Positions 1 through 31,354 of a stretch of 32,000 nt of DNA are shown here, one piece after another; position 1 is the stretch's first letter, and the number at the start of each line of letters is the position of its first letter. Both the position numbers and the translations under genes were made by a program. The stretch spans positions 1-32,000 of the forward strand of contig WBXG01000011.1 of NCBI GenBank assembly GCA_008932965.1. The letters are read 5' to 3'. The notes beneath the pieces are model-generated. The model worked only from the letters and a program-made list of their open reading frames with translations. It did no database searches and was not told where the DNA came from. The DNA comes from Verrucomicrobiota bacterium. Its GTDB lineage: Bacteria; Verrucomicrobiota; Verrucomicrobiia; Chthoniobacterales; UBA6821.

Positions 1-213
1 ATACTGCGTCAGTCTCGAATTGCTCCTCGGGCAGTATGAAACATACAGCCGTCGTCGCAATCCATCACCTTCGTTGACTCGCTCGCTCCCGCTCGTCTCG
101 CCCTTTCAGGCCTGTCTAAAGACAGTCTCCACCGCGGTCTCCCGACCGCCGGTGGTGTCTGCATCAGGATTCACGGCGCCTCGCGACGAACCAGTATGAA
201 ATATGCGGGTCAA
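1..213 (+). mobile_element. MITE-like palindromic element, copy A (long variant; left arm cut by window edge)
   Basis: Collinear with copy H (30957-31140), from actgcgt..gtctcgaattg through the apex hairpin ggcagtatg-aaa-catacagcc (30-50) to the right terminus gtatgaaatatgcgggtcaa (194-213). It carries an extra nested module at 73-156. Confidence 0.8.
73..156 (+). repeat. Nested GC-rich hairpin module inside copy A (second copy at 7043-7135)
   Basis: 73-110 (38 nt) and 126-156 (31 nt) are identical to 7043-7080 and 7105-7135. The module is absent from the otherwise collinear copy H. It contains two hairpins: ctgtc-taaa-gacag (112-125), and ccaccgcggtc-tccc-gaccgccggtgg (129-155; 11 bp with one bulge). 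Confidence 0.8.
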
Positions 214-1653: not shown

Positions 1654-3378
1654 GTGAGTAAAGTGTTCTCTATATTTATTTTTTCCATTTTGACTGTTAC
1701 AGCGGTTTTTTGGCCCCTTTATTTTGCAGATCATTTTTTTCTCTTCCTCTGGCCCTCGATGCTCTGGGCTCTTGCTATTGGGTTTGCGAGTTCTTATCAA
1801 TGTTGGCGAGCTCCTCTGTTTACTTTTTTCTTGGCTTTATTGCCTATTGTGGCAGGAGCCCTTTATTTTGGAATGGCTCATGCTTCCGATGATTCCTTTC
1901 TACTTGCAGGAGTGATTCCCTGGAGTGATGCCGCCATGCATTTTCGCCAGGCAGCACAAATGGCTGTTTATGGAATCACACAAACAGGAATGAACGGGCG
2001 TTTTCTTTACCCTGCCTATTTTTCTTCACTCCTAACAATCTGTCATTACAATCTACTGATGGCAGAAACCCTCTGTGGATGCCTTTTTGCAGCGGGACTA
2101 GTTGTTGCCTTACGTGAGACAGCACGTGTCATTGGAGTTTCAGGAGCAAGCGTCGTTGCGCTTGTCTGTTGGCTTTTTTTTCGCGAACGCTGTGCGGGTC
2201 TTATCATGACCGAAAATCTCGGGATAATGTGTGGGGTGCTTTCTTTAGCTGCCTTTCTAAGAGGGCTCCATGGGAAACATTTTTACTTAGTAATAGTGGG
2301 AATTTTCATGCTCTCCTTGGGCCTCTGTGCACGACCTGGAGCTTTAGTTGTTTTGCCACTCCTCATTGCTTTTTCTGGATGGCTCGGATGGCAAGGAGGA
2401 ATCTCAAAAAAATGGGGCCGACTGATTCAATCTCTTTTAGCAATGGTTCTTGCACTAATCGTAGTGCTCCTTGCTTTTCATTGTAACAGAATCCTTGCTG
2501 GTTCCCTCTACGAAGGGAAAGTCATTACTAATCAGAATTTTTCCTTTACCTTGAACGGTTTGCTCACTGGGGGGAAATGGTCTGATTGTCTGGGTTGGTC
2601 CCATTGGGATTCCAAATTAGTGATGCGTGAAAATTTAAGACTGATTCAAGAACAACCCCAACTCCTTTTTCTTGGAGCTCTACGCGCTTATAAAGAAGCT
2701 CTTTCCCATCGTACTTTATTTCAATTCCACCAGGAATCACGCCTTGCGACATTTCTGTTGATCATGGCATTTATTGGTTTGGTGGCTCTCTGGAAAAGAG
2801 AACAACTTCGACCTTACGCACTTTGGTTGACCTTGATAACAGTTGGAATCCTTCTCTCCATTCCTTTTGCTCCCCCTTGGGATGCTGCAGAGAGGCCTTT
2901 TGCAGCAACAGTCCCATTCCAAGGCCTCCTTGCAGGTGTTGGATTTTTCGCACTTGCACACCGTTTTTTTGTTTTTGATAGGAGTTTGCCTCTCCCTCCC
3001 TCAACGATGCCTCGTAGTGATCTTGGTATACTCCTTCTTCTAGTATCACTCGTTTTCTTTCTCACGGTTCCATGGCCTCTGATCCATCAAAAAAATCTTT
3101 TTAACAAGGAAGGAACAACCTCATCGATGGCATTATATCCTGGTTCTTTTGTACTAGTAACTCCGGAAAACCGTTTTGAGTTAGAGAGTCGTATGATTCC
3201 TTTCCTACGTCATTATCCAAGTGAAGGTGAATTTCTAATGCATCTTCCATCCCATGTTTTCCTAGGGATTGATTGGAGTAATAAAAATTTTGATCGCTCT
3301 ATTTTTCTCAATAGTGTAGGAGAGACAGTTCCTTTTCGGGGTTGGAATGTAGATCAGCGATTACTTCCTAAAAAATAG
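1654..3378 (+). CDS. Polytopic membrane protein, possibly a GT-C / ArnT-PMT-like glycosyltransferase
   Basis: 574-aa ORF with a GTG start. The N-terminal two-thirds contain many hydrophobic helices, followed by a soluble C-terminal domain. It lies 20 nt downstream of a polyprenyl-P-sugar-synthase-like GT2. The family assignment rests on topology and context only. Confidence 0.6.
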   Translation: MSKVFSIFIFSILTVTAVFWPLYFADHFFLFLWPSMLWALAIGFASSYQCWRAPLFTFFLALLPIVAGALYFGMAHASDDSFLLAGVIPWSDAAMHFRQAAQMAVYGITQTGMNGRFLYPAYFSSLLTICHYNLLMAETLCGCLFAAGLVVALRETARVIGVSGASVVALVCWLFFRERCAGLIMTENLGIMCGVLSLAAFLRGLHGKHFYLVIVGIFMLSLGLCARPGALVVLPLLIAFSGWLGWQGGISKKWGRLIQSLLAMVLALIVVLLAFHCNRILAGSLYEGKVITNQNFSFTLNGLLTGGKWSDCLGWSHWDSKLVMRENLRLIQEQPQLLFLGALRAYKEALSHRTLFQFHQESRLATFLLIMAFIGLVALWKREQLRPYALWLTLITVGILLSIPFAPPWDAAERPFAATVPFQGLLAGVGFFALAHRFFVFDRSLPLPPSTMPRSDLGILLLLVSLVFFLTVPWPLIHQKNLFNKEGTTSSMALYPGSFVLVTPENRFELESRMIPFLRHYPSEGEFLMHLPSHVFLGIDWSNKNFDRSIFLNSVGETVPFRGWNVDQRLLPKK

Positions 3379-3394
3379 GGAACGCTTTCCTAGT

Positions 3395-4411
3395 ATGAAT
3401 CCAAAAATAATTCTTGTCACTGGAGGTGCTGGTTACATCGGTTCGCATACCTGTGTGGCCTTGGCTCAGGCTGGCTACAGGCCGCTGATCTTGGACAACT
3501 TCAGCAATAGCAAGACCTCTGTAATCGATCGATTAGCAACACTCATGGGAGATCCCCCTCTTTGCGTGGAGGGCGATATTCGTGACGCTGCGTTAATTAA
3601 GAAAATCTTTCACGATTATTGCTGTGAAAGTGTGATTCATTTTGCTGGCCTAAAAGCTGTTGGAGAGTCTGTGAAGCAACCGCTTCAATACTACGACGTG
3701 AATGTAGCAGGATCCCTCACTCTGTTTGCAGTAATGAAAGATTTCGGTATAAAGCATCTTATTTTTTCCTCCTCAGCTGCTGTTTATGGAGAGGAAAAAG
3801 AGCCTCCACTCCATGAGGAATCACTCCTCCATCCAGTAAATCCCTATGGTCGTTCGAAACTAATGGTAGAGGAAATATTGGAAGATCTTTATCACATGGA
3901 TTCCCACTCAAGCATCGTACGCCTTCGCTATTTTAATCCTATTGGAGCTCATCCTAGTGGACTCATCGGAGAAACTCCCAGTGGAGTCCCCAATAACCTC
4001 ATGCCCTACATCACCCAAGTTGCTGTGGGGATAAGAAAAAAACTTTCCATTTTTGGGAATGATTATCCAACTGTTGATGGAACAGCCGTGCGTGATTACA
4101 TTCATGTGATGGACTTAGCGGAGGGACATGTGGCCGCGCTTCAAAAAACAGAACGCTCTTCGGGGCTCTCCACGTTGAATTTAGGAACCGGTCGAGGTTC
4201 CTCCGTGCTTGAGCTAGTAGAGGCTTTTGAGGCTGCCACCGGAAAAAACATTCCTTATGAAATCGTAGCACGCCGTGCAGGTGATGTCGCTGCTTGCTGG
4301 GCCGACCCTAGTGCTGCTCAAAAGCAATTAGGATGGGGGGCAACACGCGATCTAAGAACCATGTGTGCTGATAGTTGGAATTGGCAACTGCGGGCTAGTT
4401 TTATTATTTAA
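3395..4411 (+). CDS. galE: UDP-glucose 4-epimerase
   Basis: 338 aa. It has the NAD-binding motif VTGGAGYIGSH, the SDR catalytic YGRSK, and full-length resemblance to GalE. Confidence 0.92.
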   Translation: MNPKIILVTGGAGYIGSHTCVALAQAGYRPLILDNFSNSKTSVIDRLATLMGDPPLCVEGDIRDAALIKKIFHDYCCESVIHFAGLKAVGESVKQPLQYYDVNVAGSLTLFAVMKDFGIKHLIFSSSAAVYGEEKEPPLHEESLLHPVNPYGRSKLMVEEILEDLYHMDSHSSIVRLRYFNPIGAHPSGLIGETPSGVPNNLMPYITQVAVGIRKKLSIFGNDYPTVDGTAVRDYIHVMDLAEGHVAALQKTERSSGLSTLNLGTGRGSSVLELVEAFEAATGKNIPYEIVARRAGDVAACWADPSAAQKQLGWGATRDLRTMCADSWNWQLRASFII

Positions 4412-6910: not shown

Positions 6911-7175
6911 TTAGACCAAATATTTCCTATCAATCACCTGCAGAAGCTAGGAAGCTAGGAAGCCAGGTCGATGCTGCATTAGACTCACATTGTGGCTTGA
7001 GCAGTATGTATGGCTACAGCCGTCTTCAAAATATGTGTCTGCGTTGACTCGCTCGCTCCCGCTCGTCTCGCCCTTTCAGGGCTGCCCCCTTAAAGCCAGG
7101 GCAGTCTCCACCGCGGTCTCCCGACCGCCGGTGGTTGCCCCATCAGTCTTGGCGGCCTCCTCTACCACGATCCAT
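6911..7175 (+). mobile_element. MITE-like palindromic element, copy B (long variant; right TIR missing)
   Basis: The left end ttagaccaaatatttcctatcaatcac aligns with the copy C (reverse complement) and F left arms. The apex is gagcagtatg..ctacagcc. The right arm ccccatcagtcttggcggcctcctc aligns with F and E. It contains the nested module 7043-7135 and an 8-bp tandem gaagctag x2.75 (6943-6964). Similarity fades at or through the stop codon of the TPM gene. Confidence 0.75.
7043..7135 (+). repeat. Nested GC-rich hairpin module inside copy B
   Basis: The flanks are identical to 73-110 and 126-156. The central hairpin is ctgccc-(11 nt)-gggcag (7082-7104), where copy A has ctgtc-taaa-gacag. Confidence 0.8.
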
Positions 7176-8931: not shown

Positions 8932-9115
8932 TTAATCCAGAAACTTCATACTAATCGTAGCGAGAGGGCCGCGAAGCTAAGGTGGGCAAGGCGAGACCTG
9001 AATTCTGACGACAGCTGTGTAAGTATGCACTGCCCGAGGAAGGCTTCGAGATCAACGTAGTATCCAGTTGGCTTCCTACCTACCGTAAGTGATTGGCATG
9101 AAATATCCGGGTTAA
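8932..9115 (-). mobile_element. MITE-like palindromic element, copy C (184 bp, inverted relative to the other copies)
   Basis: The ends are ttaatccagaaacttcatac and gcatgaaatatccgggttaa. The reverse complement aligns along its whole length with copies B and F (ttaacccggatatttcatgccaatcac..ggaagcc..gttgatctcgaagcc..gggcagtgcata..acgattagtatgaa). Confidence 0.85.
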
Positions 9116-14177: not shown

Positions 14178-14360
14178 TTCGCTCGCCTATTTCATACTGA
14201 TTCTGAAACACCTTGCTAGGGCCTGATGTATACTCTTTCTGGATCGAATGCTCCTCGAGCAGTTTGCCTCACACAGTGGTTGTCAGGCTTCATCGCTCGC
14301 TTTGTCCTATCAGCATTGGCCTTCTCATCGTCACAATCAGTGCGATATATCAGGGGATAG
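14178..14360 (+). mobile_element. MITE-like palindromic element, copy D (183 bp, more diverged)
   Basis: The left end is ttcgctcgcctatttcatac. The core ggatcgaatgctcctcgagcag..cacacagtggttgtc aligns with copy A. The right arm atcagcattggccttctcatcgtcacaatcagtgcgatatatcaggggatag aligns with F and G1. Confidence 0.7.
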
Positions 14361-17291: not shown

Positions 17292-18515
17292 ATGGCTCAA
17301 CGATCTCCCTCCTCTGTCCTGCTCATCAAGCTACGGCATCATGGAGATGTCCTTCTTGCTACACCGGTTGCCAGAGTGTTAAAGGCTCAGTTTCCCAATT
17401 GTCAGATCGATTTTCTCGTCTACGAAGGAACAGAGGCACTGCTAGAACACAATCCTGATCTACGTCAGGTTTGGATCTGGCATCGAGCGGCCCGTGGGTG
17501 GAATCGTCTTAAAAAGATCCTTCATCTTTTTTTTCAACTACAGCACCAGCATTACGACTTGGTGATCCATCTTTCCGACCAGATGCAGGGGGCATTATTG
17601 GCAGCGCTTTTAAGGCCGCACCAATCTATTGGTATTGACTATCCCAAACGTCGTCATTTTTTTTGGAGCTCCTGCTTTACAACATTAGTTCCTCTGTTTC
17701 CAAGTAACACTCATCATACTGTAGAACAAAATCTAGCTACTCTAGCAGCAGTATTTCATGCTAGTCATGACACCATAGGTGAGAGTACACACTCGTCAAG
17801 GAGGGCTTCGAGTTCAACACCCCATCAGCCTTCACAGCTTCCTCGTTACGATCAGTATGAATTATCCGGTCCAGAGATAATTTTCAACAAGAGGTTCGTT
17901 CCCGAATCCCCCAATCACATGACGGATCCTATGTTGAGATGCCGATTGGTTATTAGCCAAGAAGACCGCTTATTTATTCAAGAGCAGCTTCAAAAAACCT
18001 CATTTTCCACTCCCTATCTTCTCATTCATCCAACAGCACGCTGGTTTTTTAAGTGCTGGGAAGAGGAGTCCTTTGCAAAACTCATCGCCCATTTTGCCAA
18101 TCAAGGCTGGTCTATTCTGTTAACCTCTGGCCCGGCCGTTGAAGAGCAAGCTATGGTTGCTACAATTTTAGAGAAAGTTCATTCCGACCGCATCTACTCA
18201 CTTGCAGGTCAGTTAACATTAGGTCAGCTTGCAGCAGCAATTGAAGGAGCCACTCTTTTTATCGGTGTTGATTCTGTCCCAATGCATATGGCTGCAGCAT
18301 TAGAGAAAGATGTCGTTGCTCTTTTTGGTCCAAGTAAAATCAATGAATGGCATCCTTGGATGACCCGCTATCACCTAGTGAAAGCCTCTGATTATGGTGA
18401 TTTGATTGATCCAGATGATGTAAGAACAGAGACAGTAGTGCGCTATCTCTCTATGATTCCGGTGGAGGAAGTTATTTCAAAAGTTGAACAAATGTTACAC
18501 CTTTCTTACTCGTAG
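17292..18515 (+). CDS. Family 9 glycosyltransferase (LPS heptosyltransferase, WaaQ-like) carrying an in-frame MITE-like insertion in the interdomain linker
   Basis: 407 aa. GT9 motifs are IKLRHHGDVLLATPV, HTVEQNL, LIHPTARWFFKCW and GVDSVPMHMAAAL. Residues about 151-194 are encoded by element copy E. Confidence 0.85.
   Translation: MAQRSPSSVLLIKLRHHGDVLLATPVARVLKAQFPNCQIDFLVYEGTEALLEHNPDLRQVWIWHRAARGWNRLKKILHLFFQLQHQHYDLVIHLSDQMQGALLAALLRPHQSIGIDYPKRRHFFWSSCFTTLVPLFPSNTHHTVEQNLATLAAVFHASHDTIGESTHSSRRASSSTPHQPSQLPRYDQYELSGPEIIFNKRFVPESPNHMTDPMLRCRLVISQEDRLFIQEQLQKTSFSTPYLLIHPTARWFFKCWEEESFAKLIAHFANQGWSILLTSGPAVEEQAMVATILEKVHSDRIYSLAGQLTLGQLAAAIEGATLFIGVDSVPMHMAAALEKDVVALFGPSKINEWHPWMTRYHLVKASDYGDLIDPDDVRTETVVRYLSMIPVEEVISKVEQMLHLSYS
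17742..17874 (+). mobile_element. MITE-like element, copy E (about 133 bp), embedded in frame within the GT9 CDS
   Basis: The left terminus is ctagcagcagtatttcatgc. The core ctcgtcaaggagggcttcgagttcaac matches copy C. The right arm ccccatcagccttcacagcttcctcgttacgatcagtatgaattatccggtccag matches F and C. No stop codon occurs in the host reading frame. Confidence 0.8.
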
Positions 18516-19649: not shown

Positions 19650-20074
19650 AAAAATGATTGACTAGCCTTTTTTCGTTTTAGCATCATAGAAAAGATGTAC
19701 AAACCAAGTATCCAAGAACATTTATCGCTGATATCACTGTCACTACCTTTTACAGTTATATCTTGCATGGTACTGTTCTTCTTTCATCCCTGTAAATTAA
19801 GTCACGAGCGAATGTGATTGCGTTCGACGGAACGCCATTAAAAAGAGGGATTTTATCCATTACTGGCTTCGTATTTAAACGAATCTATTAATCCCTACCG
19901 TTCAAAATTCATCTGATTAAGTCAATCAATCGTGTTGATCGTTAGTGAAATACTAATTTTCTTCCTTTCCTTTCTCACTTGTTAGCAACGGAATGCTTGC
20001 TACCACTGACCAGGAGTCATGGTGCATTTTCATATCACAAAAAAACAATACTAATCCCTTTCAATATTAACAAA

Positions 20075-21946
20075 ATGTCTGCTTTAACTCAAAATTCATC
20101 CCCTAAATTCAATCTCCAGGTAGAAAGAAAAAGGCCTGTATGCTCTTCATGGCTAGCGCACAGATCGCTTCTTTTCATAGCATCCTTATGGAGTATAGGG
20201 AGCGCCTCTGCTATTTTTATGATACTATTTTCTCAATCTCTCCATGCGCAGGAAATAGATCCAAAAACCGATCCTATTGACACTGAGCTTTCAGGGCCAC
20301 TTGCCGTAATTCCAGAAATGATCTCTGTGGAAGATGCTGGAAATCTCGCTGATCCTATTACTGGATTGGGCGCGGTACAAGAAGCATTCCACATCGGAAA
20401 ATACCCTGTAACTAATTTACAATGGACAACTTTTCTCAATGCTGTGCACGTTGTTGAGCAAAATCCTGAAGATCCCCGCAATCTTTATCATGAGGAGATG
20501 TTTCAGAAAAATATTGGATCTGCTCCCTTATCTAAGTTAACCGATGTTATAAGAACCAGAATTGATGCAACCAATTTTCTAGGTCACAAGATCACGGTTT
20601 TTTTCCCAAAAGACTGGGGAACTCCCTTAGGACACTATTTTGGTTCGCTTCCTGTGACAGGAATAAGCCTAGATGACTGTAAGCGCTATCTCAATTGGTT
20701 ACATCATGGGGCTCCAGATTTTTTAACCTTATGTCGAAAAGACCCATCGTTAGATCCCTTTACTTTAAGTGAAAAGCTCTTAGCTATAACAGAAACTGGA
20801 GCCTATGATTTTACAAATGGCAAAAATGGAGAGCTTATGGAAGGAGCGCGCTATTTTCTCCCTAATTTAAATCAGTGGTACAAGGCTGCTTACCATTACG
20901 GTGGAACAACAGATGCTACCTACTGGTCTTATCCTACTCAAAGCAATAAATTACCAACTCAAAGCAATAAATTACCAACTCAAACAATCATCCTTGAACT
21001 CTTCAAAAATCCTTCTAGTGCTAAAACAGGAGCTAATTTTGCACAAGTTTTTTATAATTATAAACGATATTATATAGATGGATGTTATGACATGGAGCAT
21101 TTATTTAGTGATGAAACCATGCCTTCAAAAGAAAATGAATATTATCTTGCAACACCTGTCGGTTTTTTCACAGATTCACCCAGCTCTTATGGAACCTATG
21201 ATCAAGGAGGAAATGTAAGAGAATGGACGAGCGATTCTGTAATAACGTTGCAAGGAGAAGAAATGATTGCTCCAGGAGGATCATTTGAAGAGTCCAGTGA
21301 TCAATTATTAAGCACTAATGCAAACAAAAAATCTTTTCCCCCGTCCTGTAGAATTAAAACTATCGGTTTAAGAGTATGCTCATTAGCGACTGTTGGTAAT
21401 CTTAACAAAGATCCAATTTTGTCAGATGCTGCCTCGAACTCCCTTAACAGTTCCTTAATTCTTCAGTCATTTACAAATGTAGCCATTGCACAAACGACAG
21501 CTTATGGTCTTGAAGCTGCTTTAGCAGTTGGTATTAAATATGTTAATACGGGAAGGATAATGACTCTGAGTGAAATAGTGCGCCCTTTTACCTATCAGCG
21601 AAATATTGTAAATGGTATCTTAAGTGTTGTTCTTGTCATGGGTGAAACAGGTCGAGCAACAGTGGCTCCAATAAAAAAAGAGGACTTATGGAATATAGGA
21701 TTCGTTGTTGCCTCTACCATAGCTACGATGCTCCTGACTGAAGGTTCTGCTTTCTTTGTTGAAGCCGCCGTAGGAGAAGTGCTCAACCTGCTCAAAAACT
21801 CTAATTTGATCACAATGACAGTTCAAAATAGCGTTACTGAATTAGCATGGCCCAGATTGATTACCAACATGTGGTACATTGGCCTGAATACTTATCTGAC
21901 AACAAAATCAGATTTAAAATATTTTGAAGAACAACAACTCAATTAA
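20075..21946 (+). CDS. FGE/SUMF1-domain protein with N-terminal anchor and C-terminal hydrophobic region
   Basis: FGE-sulfatase-family motifs are present (FHIGKYPVTNLQWTTFLNAV, YGTYDQGGNVREWTSD, APGGSF). There is an N-terminal hydrophobic segment (LLFIASLWSIGSASAIFMILF). The C-terminal roughly 170 aa contain several hydrophobic segments. I prefer the ATG at 20075 over the TTG at 19979. Confidence 0.75.
   Translation: MSALTQNSSPKFNLQVERKRPVCSSWLAHRSLLFIASLWSIGSASAIFMILFSQSLHAQEIDPKTDPIDTELSGPLAVIPEMISVEDAGNLADPITGLGAVQEAFHIGKYPVTNLQWTTFLNAVHVVEQNPEDPRNLYHEEMFQKNIGSAPLSKLTDVIRTRIDATNFLGHKITVFFPKDWGTPLGHYFGSLPVTGISLDDCKRYLNWLHHGAPDFLTLCRKDPSLDPFTLSEKLLAITETGAYDFTNGKNGELMEGARYFLPNLNQWYKAAYHYGGTTDATYWSYPTQSNKLPTQSNKLPTQTIILELFKNPSSAKTGANFAQVFYNYKRYYIDGCYDMEHLFSDETMPSKENEYYLATPVGFFTDSPSSYGTYDQGGNVREWTSDSVITLQGEEMIAPGGSFEESSDQLLSTNANKKSFPPSCRIKTIGLRVCSLATVGNLNKDPILSDAASNSLNSSLILQSFTNVAIAQTTAYGLEAALAVGIKYVNTGRIMTLSEIVRPFTYQRNIVNGILSVVLVMGETGRATVAPIKKEDLWNIGFVVASTIATMLLTEGSAFFVEAAVGEVLNLLKNSNLITMTVQNSVTELAWPRLITNMWYIGLNTYLTTKSDLKYFEEQQLN
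20936..20984 (+). repeat. Perfect 21-bp tandem repeat (2.3 units) inside the FGE-domain CDS
   Basis: actcaaagcaataaattacca occurs at 20936-20956 and 20957-20977, followed by actcaaa. It encodes PTQSNKL-PTQSNKL-PTQ. Confidence 0.95.
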
Positions 21947-22127
21947 CCCGTATGTTTCATCCCGATCTACTGCGTAGATCGGGAAGTCATATGGATGCTG
22001 CGTTAGACTTGCATTTTGATTTGGGCAGTATGTACAACATACAGCCCTGCATCAAAATGCTCGCCTGCCTTACCCCATCAGCCTTCGAGGCCTCCTCGTT
22101 ACGATCATTATGAAATATGCGAGCTAG
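21943..22127 (+). mobile_element. MITE-like palindromic element, copy F (185 bp), filling the gap between two convergent genes
   Basis: The ends are ttaacccgtatgtttcat and ttatgaaatatgcgagctag. The central imperfect palindrome is at 22011-22060 (gcattttgat..ggcagtatg-tacaa-catacagcc..atcaaaatgc). The TAA stop of the + strand gene (21944-21946) and the TAG stop of the - strand gene (22124-22126) lie in the element tips. Confidence 0.88.
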
Positions 22128-25696: not shown

Positions 25697-25762
25697 TTTA
25701 ACCCGCATATTTCATACTCATCACGGCCTCCTCGTCACGATCAGTATGAAATATCTGGGCTA
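25697..25762 (+). mobile_element. Minimal (66-bp) member of the MITE-like family, copy G1
   Basis: ttaacccgcatatttcatactcatc..gatcagtatgaaatatctgggctag. The two TIR arms are separated by only about 16 nt, with a 13-bp perfect inverted repeat (atatttcatact/agtatgaaatat). Confidence 0.85.
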
Positions 25763-25909
25763 GTTTTTCAGATTGGATCAGGCTGAGTCAACTGCATCGA
25801 TGTATTGTAGAGCAACTAAAAAATTTATAACCCCTAAAAAGGGAGCTCGTCATAGAATGTTCTTTGCGAGCATAAGGAAGACTTGCTTCTCTCTGGTTTT
25901 ATAGGCATC

Positions 25910-26093
25910 TTAACTCGAATATTTCATACTCAATCCTTGCGGCTTGGGGAAAGCTCATTGTCACTGTGCTGGTCTCGATTGCGAGTGGGGAAGTAGGGCT
26001 CCTGCAGCCCCGCATCACAATCTTTCTCCCTCCTTGTACTAATAAGCTTTGCACGGCGCCTCATGACGCTTCAGTATGAAATGCTCGGATTAA
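25910..26093 (+). mobile_element. MITE-like palindromic element, copy G2 (184 bp)
   Basis: The ends are ttaactcgaatatttcatac and gtatgaaatgctcggattaa. The left arm cggcttggggaaagctcattgtcactgtgctggtctcgattg is collinear with copy H. The right arm cacggcgcctcatgacgcttcagtatgaaat is collinear with copy A. Confidence 0.85.
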
Positions 26094-30956: not shown

Positions 30957-31140
30957 TTAACCCGCATATTTCATACCGATCTATTACGGCTTGTGGAAAG
31001 CTCATGATTACTGCGTTGGTCTCGAATTGTGATTTGGGCGGTATGTACTCATACAGCGGTCGTCGCAATCCATCACCTTCCATGTCATCATCAGAATTCG
31101 CTGCGCTTCGTGACGAACCAGTATGAAATAGGCAGGCTAA
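30957..31140 (+). mobile_element. MITE-like palindromic element, copy H (184 bp)
   Basis: The ends are ttaacccgcatatttcatac and gtatgaaataggcaggctaa. The core actgcgttggtctcgaattg and the apex gcggtatg-tact-catacagc, followed by cgtcgcaatccatcaccttc, are nearly identical to copy A (1-72). It starts 4 nt after the PBP2 stop codon. Confidence 0.9.
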
Positions 31141-31354
31141 AAGATTCATTTCCGCTTTTTCTCAAAAACAGTTCACTTTAAAAGAAACTCAAGTTACCAT
31201 AAAGAACTCGTTTGGAAAGAGCTCACCGGAAGATGTACAGCATTCCAAATTTTAAGAATCTCAAAATTTTTCACTTTTAACCGCTGTCTGATGACAGCCC
31301 CTACTACTTTGAATATTATCGATACTGTAAAACGTTTTTTAGGCGTTAAGAAAA

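Follow-up and report, generated by a model that had tools for sequence, protein, structure and literature searches.

How does one and the same small GC-rich segment come to lie at the same internal site of two repeats that are otherwise rather dissimilar, and does its fold have a task there? The question is raised by a stretch of 32,000 nucleotides from a Verrucomicrobiota bacterium of the order Chthoniobacterales (assembly GCA_008932965.1, contig WBXG01000011.1, positions 1 to 32,000; the whole of it is referred to below as the window). It holds nine copies of a non-coding, TA-flanked miniature inverted-repeat transposable element (MITE) of approximately 185 bp, a density that is very high, and dozens more are present in related loci. 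Two of these copies, A and B, carry in their right arms an additional segment, the module, which is a member of an apparently undescribed family of approximately 85-nt, three-hairpin units of Chthoniobacterales-type bacteria. On balance, we favour the explanation that the module is a nested passenger copy of this separate small element, homogenised between MITE copies. Within the window, it most likely rides along in the MITE and does not work as an RNA signal.

The module and its fixed site in the MITE

The host copies in the window were found with an nhmmer host profile. Copy A (<1-213, + strand) belongs to a subfamily that we call A-type; its left end is cut by the window start and its right terminus reads CAGTATGAAATATGCGGGTCAA. 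Copy B (6911-7161, + strand), of the B-type subfamily and delimited by nhmmer together with an alignment of B-type elements, has a degenerate left terminus, while its right terminus is deleted. In copy A, the host profile aligns at 2-78 and at 156-212, and the gap is therefore exactly the module (73-156, + strand, 84 nt, GTTGAC...GGTGGT). A covariance model of the unit family, R1, built from 28 diverse units, matches it with 85.6 bits (E = 3e-17), and the module of copy B (7043-7135, + strand, 93 nt, with the same ends and a long second hairpin) with 88.6 bits. Both the sequence and the profile gap thus confirm the original prediction that the two segments occupy one right-arm site, and that two collinear copies are free of the module. 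Namely, copy H (30957-31141, + strand), of A-type, has the empty site CA at 31081-31082, between CACCTTC and TGTC, and copy F (21943-22127, + strand), of B-type, has CT at 22069-22070, between CCTGC and TACCCC.

The module opens with a 27-nt, pyrimidine-rich leader, GTTGACTCGCTCGCTCCCGCTCGTCTC (73-99 in copy A, + strand), which is unpaired within the unit and conserved in every unit subtype, and continues with three hairpins, P1, P2 and P3, on the same strand. In copy A, P1 (100-111) reads GCC-CTTTCA-GGC and is seen both in the fold and as the first helix of the family. P2 (112-125) reads CTGTC-TAAA-GACAG, with both arms changed relative to the common CTGCC/GGCAG, and P3 (129-155), the GC stem, reads CCACCGCGGTC-TCCC-GACCGCCGGTGG, pairing 129-139 with 144-155 over 11 bp, its TCCC loop reading GGGA on the opposite strand. 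The corresponding hairpins of copy B lie at 7070-7082, at 7082-7104 (CTGCCC-CCTTAAAGCCA-GGGCAG, with 11 nt in the loop) and at 7108-7134. In both copies, the small hairpin is as it had been described, and the 11-bp GC stem with its TCCC loop is present as well, one bulged C on the 3' arm being our only addition. Of the two blocks said to be identical between the modules, the left one is so at 38 of 38 positions, whereas the right one (CAGTCTCC...GGTGG) is not 31 but 33 of 33 positions long, plus the T that follows. The cores of both blocks occur at these two sites only in the window, with three mismatches allowed and 0.00 occurrences expected from shuffles. Module A folds better than its shuffles on either strand (z = -3.5 on +, -4.4 on -). 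For the window modules on both strands, z ranges from -3.2 to -4.4, the complementary strand being more stable.

Outside the window, a genome scan with the P3 core and a scan with the leader found many more copies. When one genome per species was scanned with the 21-nt P3 core, 27 stretches came up. The exact 21-mer is present in 23 of them, which come from Chthoniobacterales-type metagenome-assembled genomes (MAGs), namely from Tobar2m-G38, from Kiruna bin-02438 and from a Burkholderiales-binned contig of 2 kb; the remaining four are chance matches in GC-rich genomes. Every real match is a module inside a MITE, with identical boundaries. Consequently, the module is not confined to copies A and B: at least 30 MITE-borne copies are found in Chthoniobacterales (Verrucomicrobiota) assemblies, all at one host site, in addition to free-standing units, and among the module-bearing MITEs found none has it at any other position. 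A-type junctions read ...CCATCACCTTC/GTTGAC...GGTGG/TGTCTGCATCAGG... and B-type junctions ...CAAAATGYTCGTCTGC/GTTGAC...GGTGG/TACCCCATC..., and module-free elements of both types read C-CT-T at the module site. In a census of right arms, the module is present in 23 of 28 A-type and in 9 of 35 B-type arms, proportions that are biased by the way in which the loci were fetched. The arms of the two types differ by approximately 30%, their modules by 0-3%. The view of the module as a second-order nested unit, distinct from its host and placed at the same site in two host subfamilies, is thus upheld.

A few of these loci call for a separate remark. The 2-kb 'uncultured Burkholderiales' contig (CAIKYO010000408.1, locus L014) carries an A-type MITE whose module is identical to Chthoniobacterales copies, and is for this reason probably mis-binned. 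In L099, the 23S-5S rRNA genes are followed directly downstream by two MITEs with the module (1108-1446 and 1644-2304), of which one is very degenerate. In several composites, a complete module-free MITE is followed by TA, by the right half of the module starting within the P2 loop (TA/AAGGCAG...) and by the right arm (L024:~1400-1800; L007:5880-6196, - strand; L005:~3300-3560; L001:~700-900, - strand; L123:~1555, - strand; L128:~4431, - strand). The best explanation of these composites is a MITE inserted at the TA of the TAAA loop of the module, the inner left and outer right ends having then moved jointly, i.e. a third order of nesting.

A family of free-standing units

Metagenome contigs were scanned with the first 20 nt of the module, that is, with the leader only, in order to avoid selecting on the hairpins. 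The scan yielded more than 100 loci (a lower bound), most of them outside any MITE and in contigs of 50-65% GC, and more than 70 GC-rich contigs hold a MITE-free unit of approximately 85 nt. With R1, 106 units are identified in 100 loci, most of them again outside any MITE, and copies that lack the exact 20-mer are among them. The order of parts is leader, P1, P2, a C-rich joiner (G/A)TCTCCCC, P3 with a TCCC or TTCCC loop, and a short tail, which is CGGTGGT, CTGGGT or others. The stem sequences differ from those of the window, the P3 loop is conserved across subtypes, and three C-rich motifs are conserved in the units (as RNA, CUCCC, UCUCCCC and the UCCC loop). Units occur singly, several to a contig (four in L081), next to each other (L112), within genes, and as parts of longer mosaic repeats (L088, L109 and L058; L036, L089 and L092).

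The pairing was scored on 49 distinct, confidently aligned units, the controls being 500 shuffles and 3' partners slid by 1-3 columns. Standard pairs account for 84.1% of cells, against 60.1% in the shuffles (none of the 500 reaches the observed value) and at most 56% with slid partners. The covariation score is 0.54, against 0.16 for shuffled and at most 0.12 for slid partners. Changes on both sides are seen in 19 of the 20 pairs, namely in three of the four pairs of P1 (96% of cells paired), in all five of P2 (92% of cells paired, with CG, GC, AU and UA) and in all 11 of P3. To judge by these counts, compensatory change has preserved all three hairpins throughout the unit family, and at this level the original claim of a selected fold holds, the covariation among unit copies being strong. 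The single compensatory pair in P2 of copy A, a variant common to L123 and L106, could equally stem from templated correction within a quasi-palindrome. Wobble pairs in the free-standing units are without strand asymmetry (28 G.U vs. 24 A.C), which is unusual for a one-strand RNA fold; a requirement for hairpin geometry in DNA, or one that bears on both strands, would agree with it. In the free-standing units, many loops of P1 and P2 look by eye like T-N-C triloops on the + strand (G-N-A on the opposite strand), but a crude count does not confirm this (21 of 67 first-hairpin loops).

What is more, several free-standing units can be excised exactly. In L085, removal of precisely 85 nt (GTTGAC to GGGAGT) rejoins an IS110-family transposase without duplicated bases, after which a single NCBIfam alignment spans the junction (profile positions 23-107). 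In L086, a unit of exactly 84 nt, in frame and stop-free, lies inside an RHS-associated core, with zero profile offset after excision, and in L081, a 70-nt unit without the inner part of P3 splits an unnamed open reading frame (ORF). For these conceptually excised ORFs, NCBIfam gave matches in two of three, and Pfam gave no domains. Two of the three intragenic units examined break the reading frame, and all are antisense to the UNC-loop strand; they were met while reading flanks rather than in a systematic screen. The only clean filled/empty pair is provided by L112 and L036, the former holding a second unit where the latter has just one, with a small mismatch similar to the replacement of CT by the module in the MITE. 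The unit ends, GTTGAC... and ...GGTGGT, are not complementary, i.e. there are no inverted termini; exact excision of the intragenic units leaves no target duplication; and the flank logos of 47 units, with at most 0.4 bit at any position, give no fixed target. By these measures, the unit is an oriented insertion with sharp ends. The IS110-like ORF of L111 (~2700-3400) holds two further small in-frame inserts, of 15 and 20 codons, which are absent from L085; this suggests that other small-insertion families are active in these GC-rich genomes.

Near the units, neither a transposase nor a reverse transcriptase is recurrent. Their sole recurrent neighbours are tail-fibre-like Peptidase_S74 paralogues, the unit lying 2-31 nt past the stop codon on the same strand (L031, L093, L094, L102 with three in tandem, L116 and L124). 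Possible reasons are a joint duplication of unit and gene, or an action of the unit within the 3' untranslated region. No unit copies were found in viral contigs or plasmids. As for the bearers, the closest named relatives of the TPM-domain protein of the window (72-79% identity) are in Chthoniobacterales MAGs, and the SecDF gene beside the free-standing type I unit of L088 is 95% identical to a Terrimicrobiaceae protein, which makes this one placed unit that of a GC-richer member of the window's own order. The family is apparently scattered through related soil and freshwater bacteria, with one free-standing locus placed. In the lower-GC lineage, comprising the window, the Tobar and Kiruna MAGs and the sister genomes (L134, L135 and L137), the unit is seen only inside MITEs: no free-standing unit was found in approximately 300 kb from this lineage, whether of module-bearing or of sister genomes, and 45 kb of sister genomes, with three MITE copies, hold neither module nor free-standing unit.

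Is the unit a known element under another name? The window and 20 free-standing-unit loci have no match in Rfam 15 at the gathering score, and for the window copy and eight such loci nothing relevant appears at permissive E-values. In the literature, no record was found of a 14-mer of the unit, on either strand, as DNA or RNA. The search on Verrucomicrobia repeats and nested MITEs gave only a REP classification paper, whose families do not fit (PMC3733652). According to that paper, GTAG/CGTC REPs are single stem-loops of 20-40 bp with stems of 8-9 bp, a terminal tag and a short tail, usually in inverted dimers, and CGTC REPs are without a dedicated transposase (PMC3733652). Like REPs and BIMEs, the unit is a small GC-rich hairpin repeat, mostly intergenic, sometimes intragenic, and found in mosaics, and CGTC stands just 5' of its P1. 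In contrast to them, it measures approximately 85 nt and has a 27-nt leader and three distinct hairpins in one orientation; it forms no dimers, and no RAYT gene recurs within 3 kb of it (90 loci). By that definition, the unit is no GTAG or CGTC REP. The Rickettsia palindromic elements (RPE), whose mobilisation mechanism is not known, are similarly found in frame in coding genes, as is the stop-free 84-nt unit of L086, but they share no sequence relationship with the unit and are long single palindromes, and two of the three intragenic units break the frame. The unit further resembles the IS200/IS605-derived PATEs, or HUH ends, in being oriented, without inverted termini or target duplication, and in its subterminal hairpins (the left end lies 27 nt before P1, the right end 7 nt past P3). 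However, the IS200/IS605 family requires a fixed tetra- or pentanucleotide target at the left end, and, as the flank logos show, such a target is absent. In addition, the hairpin sequences vary within one contig (L081), and no TnpA/TnpB gene lies nearby.

The enterobacterial ERIC/IRU repeats, imperfect palindromes described by Wilson and Sharp in 2006, reportedly come in long forms with an extra segment of approximately 70 bp at a specific internal position. Here, in contrast, the extra segment is a member of an independent, free-standing three-hairpin family, and the host has TA-flanked inverted termini. Nested MITEs are well known in plants, and the likeness lies in a non-autonomous element that sits inside another and spreads as a composite, with a third level added here by the MITE at the TA of the P2 loop. 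The inner element itself is not a MITE, as it has neither inverted, complementary ends nor a target duplication. A link to group II introns was considered because of L088 (3158-3338), where an intron-like 5' end (GTGCGCC...GGTGAAAGTCCC; sub-threshold Rfam match to D1-D4, E = 0.012) stands directly after a 184-nt repeat made up of the unit and 100 nt. The intron-like end is seen in L088 only, and L109 and L058 have the repeat without an intron; we take this insertion to be incidental. An origin from tRNA or tmRNA, on account of a likeness of ...CTCCCGCCAGCTCCA... to tmRNA 3' ends, was dropped, ARAGORN finding nothing in the window or in 60 free-standing loci.

Small structured repeats such as REP, BIME, ERIC, RPE and MITE shape bacterial genomes, and the movement of many of them is not known. 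The present case contributes, on the one hand, a clear nesting of one repeat family in another, with exchange from copy to copy, and, on the other, a family without earlier record, in which covariation is unusually strong and the insertion ends can be defined precisely. These two properties make the family a tractable system for studying spread without inverted termini or a transposase of its own. In practical terms, the units are a source of assembly breaks, the contigs of the window's population ending at these repeats; they cause in-frame or disruptive insertions in genes; and, as GC-rich structured islands in lower-GC genomes, they could pass for non-coding RNA genes.

Passenger, insertion or signal

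How did copies A and B come to share the module? In 15 A-type copies, the nucleotide diversity of the non-bait part of the module is 0.064, that of the adjacent right arm 0.085 and that of the left arm 0.22, and the substitutions in P1 are uncompensated singletons. Since the module drifts like its flanks and its P1 changes are uncompensated, there is no sign of selection on the fold while the unit rides in the MITE. To this extent the claim of a selected fold, which stands for the wider family, fails for the MITE-borne copies. Within the module, a CCACC or CCCCC joiner is combined with a short or long P2 in all four ways, each state being found in both host subfamilies. Copy B's module is identical at 93 of 93 positions to L017:2717-2809, which lies in an A-type host, and none of 29 copies is an A/B chimera. 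The shuffling of variants, together with the perfect match of the copy B module in an A-type host, requires transfer or overwriting of the module between elements, be it by conversion confined to the module or by repeated site-specific insertion. The earlier statement that independent acquisition or exchange must be invoked is thus borne out, the module variants being incongruent with the host subfamily.

In the explanation that we favour, the unit is nested at one fixed right-arm site of a TA-targeting MITE. In the lower-GC lineage of the window, it would no longer be free-standing and would multiply passively when the composite MITE is mobilised, the A-type MITE with module probably being a young and abundant subfamily. 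Module sequences would be exchanged or overwritten between MITE copies, also across the A and B types, by gene-conversion-like events confined to the module; such events would explain why the module blocks of A and B are identical although their hosts are dissimilar. The hairpins would be a legacy of the unit's own propagation or persistence, for which their geometry in single-stranded DNA (or in a transcript of either strand) would most likely matter, and would serve neither the MITE nor the neighbouring genes.

Several points weigh against this explanation. The boundaries are identical in both subfamilies, and no A-type flank is found in B-type hosts, whereas conversion between A and B should often carry flank along; the exact boundaries fit a site-specific insertion at least as well. 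In every copy the left arm is hypervariable (diversity 0.22), which weakens an argument from old arms and a young module in copy B, whose left arm shares no more than 73% identity with any relative. Orthologous MITEs that differ in the presence of the module were not found, and a gain in place was not observed: exact-protein look-ups for orthologous loci return the same population only, the copy-B spacer is free of the MITE in the nearest relatives among sister genomes (72-79% identity), and in four close relatives of the L088 locus the spacer is not conserved and is without the unit. The covariation alignment was fitted to the structure of the model, so its counts lean towards that structure, even if the slid-partner control and single-sequence folds agree with the result. 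Either strand, and either DNA or RNA, is compatible with the data as that which folds. Lastly, a single free-standing locus (Terrimicrobiaceae) is placed taxonomically, and nothing was found on how the free-standing units move.

Could the unit instead be mobile in trans in this lineage too, now or recently, and have been inserted at least twice independently into C-CT-T, in A and in B, replacing 2-3 nt? We consider such autonomous homing rather doubtful, although it accounts well for the junctions. Namely, the exact coincidence of boundaries in two subfamilies whose flanks are approximately 70% alike, with no host sequence co-transferred, favours insertion, as does the same replacement of CT by the module in both. 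Free-standing units, for their part, are genuine insertions, sharply bounded and without target duplication, and the small mismatch of the native pair L036 and L112 is of a similar kind. However, the approximately 300 kb mentioned above are devoid of free-standing units, the module is at no other host position, and units elsewhere are without a target motif, which would leave a specificity for the MITE site unexplained. The shuffled internal variants would need recombination anyway, and together with the lack of free-standing units and of a target motif they favour conversion. A history of a different sort, in which the module is part of the ancestral MITE and copies H and F are deletion derivatives, is largely refuted and strikes us as highly improbable. 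Degenerate modules in degenerate B-like hosts (L099:1108-1218 and L119) do show that the association is of long standing, and internal deletions of the module do occur (L004, L061). Yet many genomes have the unit free of any MITE, it is also inserted in genes, module-free elements of both subfamilies carry a CT that cannot be derived from the module ends, the arms of the subfamilies are approximately 30% apart and their modules 0-3%, and the elements of sister species are all module-free.

A functional RNA or regulatory element spread by the MITE, for instance a small RNA whose C-rich strands pair with ribosome-binding sites, or an element that stabilises or processes mRNA, appears unlikely. 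The strong covariation of the three hairpins, the folding of both strands, the three conserved C-rich motifs and the location on the coding strand shortly past the stop codon in one gene family can be cited for it. They have to be set against wobble pairs without strand asymmetry, which is unusual for an RNA made from one strand; against intragenic copies that are antisense to the UNC-loop strand, with two of three ORFs disrupted; against the uncompensated stem changes that MITE-borne copies gather; and against the lack of any Rfam family match. No promoter was found at the modules, nor any bias in their orientation relative to genes. In particular, the suggestion that transcripts end or are processed at the GC stem finds no support: on the + strand, P3 is followed by GTGTCTGC and preceded by CAGTCTCC, neither strand has a U-tract, there is no terminator-like match at either module, and an intrinsic terminator was rejected.

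Whatever the history within the MITE, with the nested passenger as the preferred one, the free-standing units might tentatively be regarded as an undescribed class of element, an oriented three-hairpin cassette of approximately 85 nt with precise insertion into genes, intergenic DNA, repeats and a MITE. If so, this would imply an uncharacterised route of mobilisation, e.g. structure-guided insertion of single-stranded DNA by a host or distant enzyme, or an RNA-mediated one, and the MITE-borne copies would amount to a natural experiment in which one selfish element captures another.

The host element and its other copies

The host element fits a MITE in its inverted termini, its short target duplication and its small, non-coding, multicopy nature. 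The inverted-repeat listing of the window gives 22-bp termini, TTAACCCGCATATTTCATACTG and CAGTATGAAATATGCGGGTTAA. The target duplication is TA, seen in L135 as GTCAC-TA-[element]-TA-AGTGAC, and the window copies are bordered by TTAA, CTAA or CTAG, consistent with such a duplication. The TA duplication in L135 suggests an IS630/Tc1-like mobilising transposase. In addition to copies A, B, F and H, the nhmmer profile finds copy C (8932-9115, - strand), copy D (14178-14358), copy E (17804-17874) and copy G (25910-26093) in the window. Copy E is a partial right arm of the MITE within the ORF 17292..18515. An unnamed derivative of 66 bp (25698-25763) consists of the two termini only, forming a near-perfect hairpin 146 bp away from the full copy G.

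The arms of copy A are 96-100% identical to those of other A-type copies, and its module is 96-99% identical, by which copy A is uniformly young. Its module-free A-type counterpart in a sister species, L135:4043-4225, reads CACCTTC-CT-TGTCT. This counterpart is 97% identical to the left part of copy A (window 1-72), while the TPM-domain proteins of the two genomes are only 72% identical, which suggests that the MITE has recently passed between species, or that it was active in both very recently. Copy B adjoins the native stop codon (7162-7164) of a TPM-domain gene, which keeps the native protein end ADGSW*, the same as in the sister genomes. The right terminus of copy B was removed by a deletion at a 7-bp CACGATC microhomology between the right arm of the MITE and the 3' end of this gene (window 7136-7175). 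Finally, at 20933-20974 of the window, within the ORF 19979..21946, a 21-bp unit, CCTACTCAAAGCAATAAATTA, is tandemly duplicated, the two copies being 95% identical.

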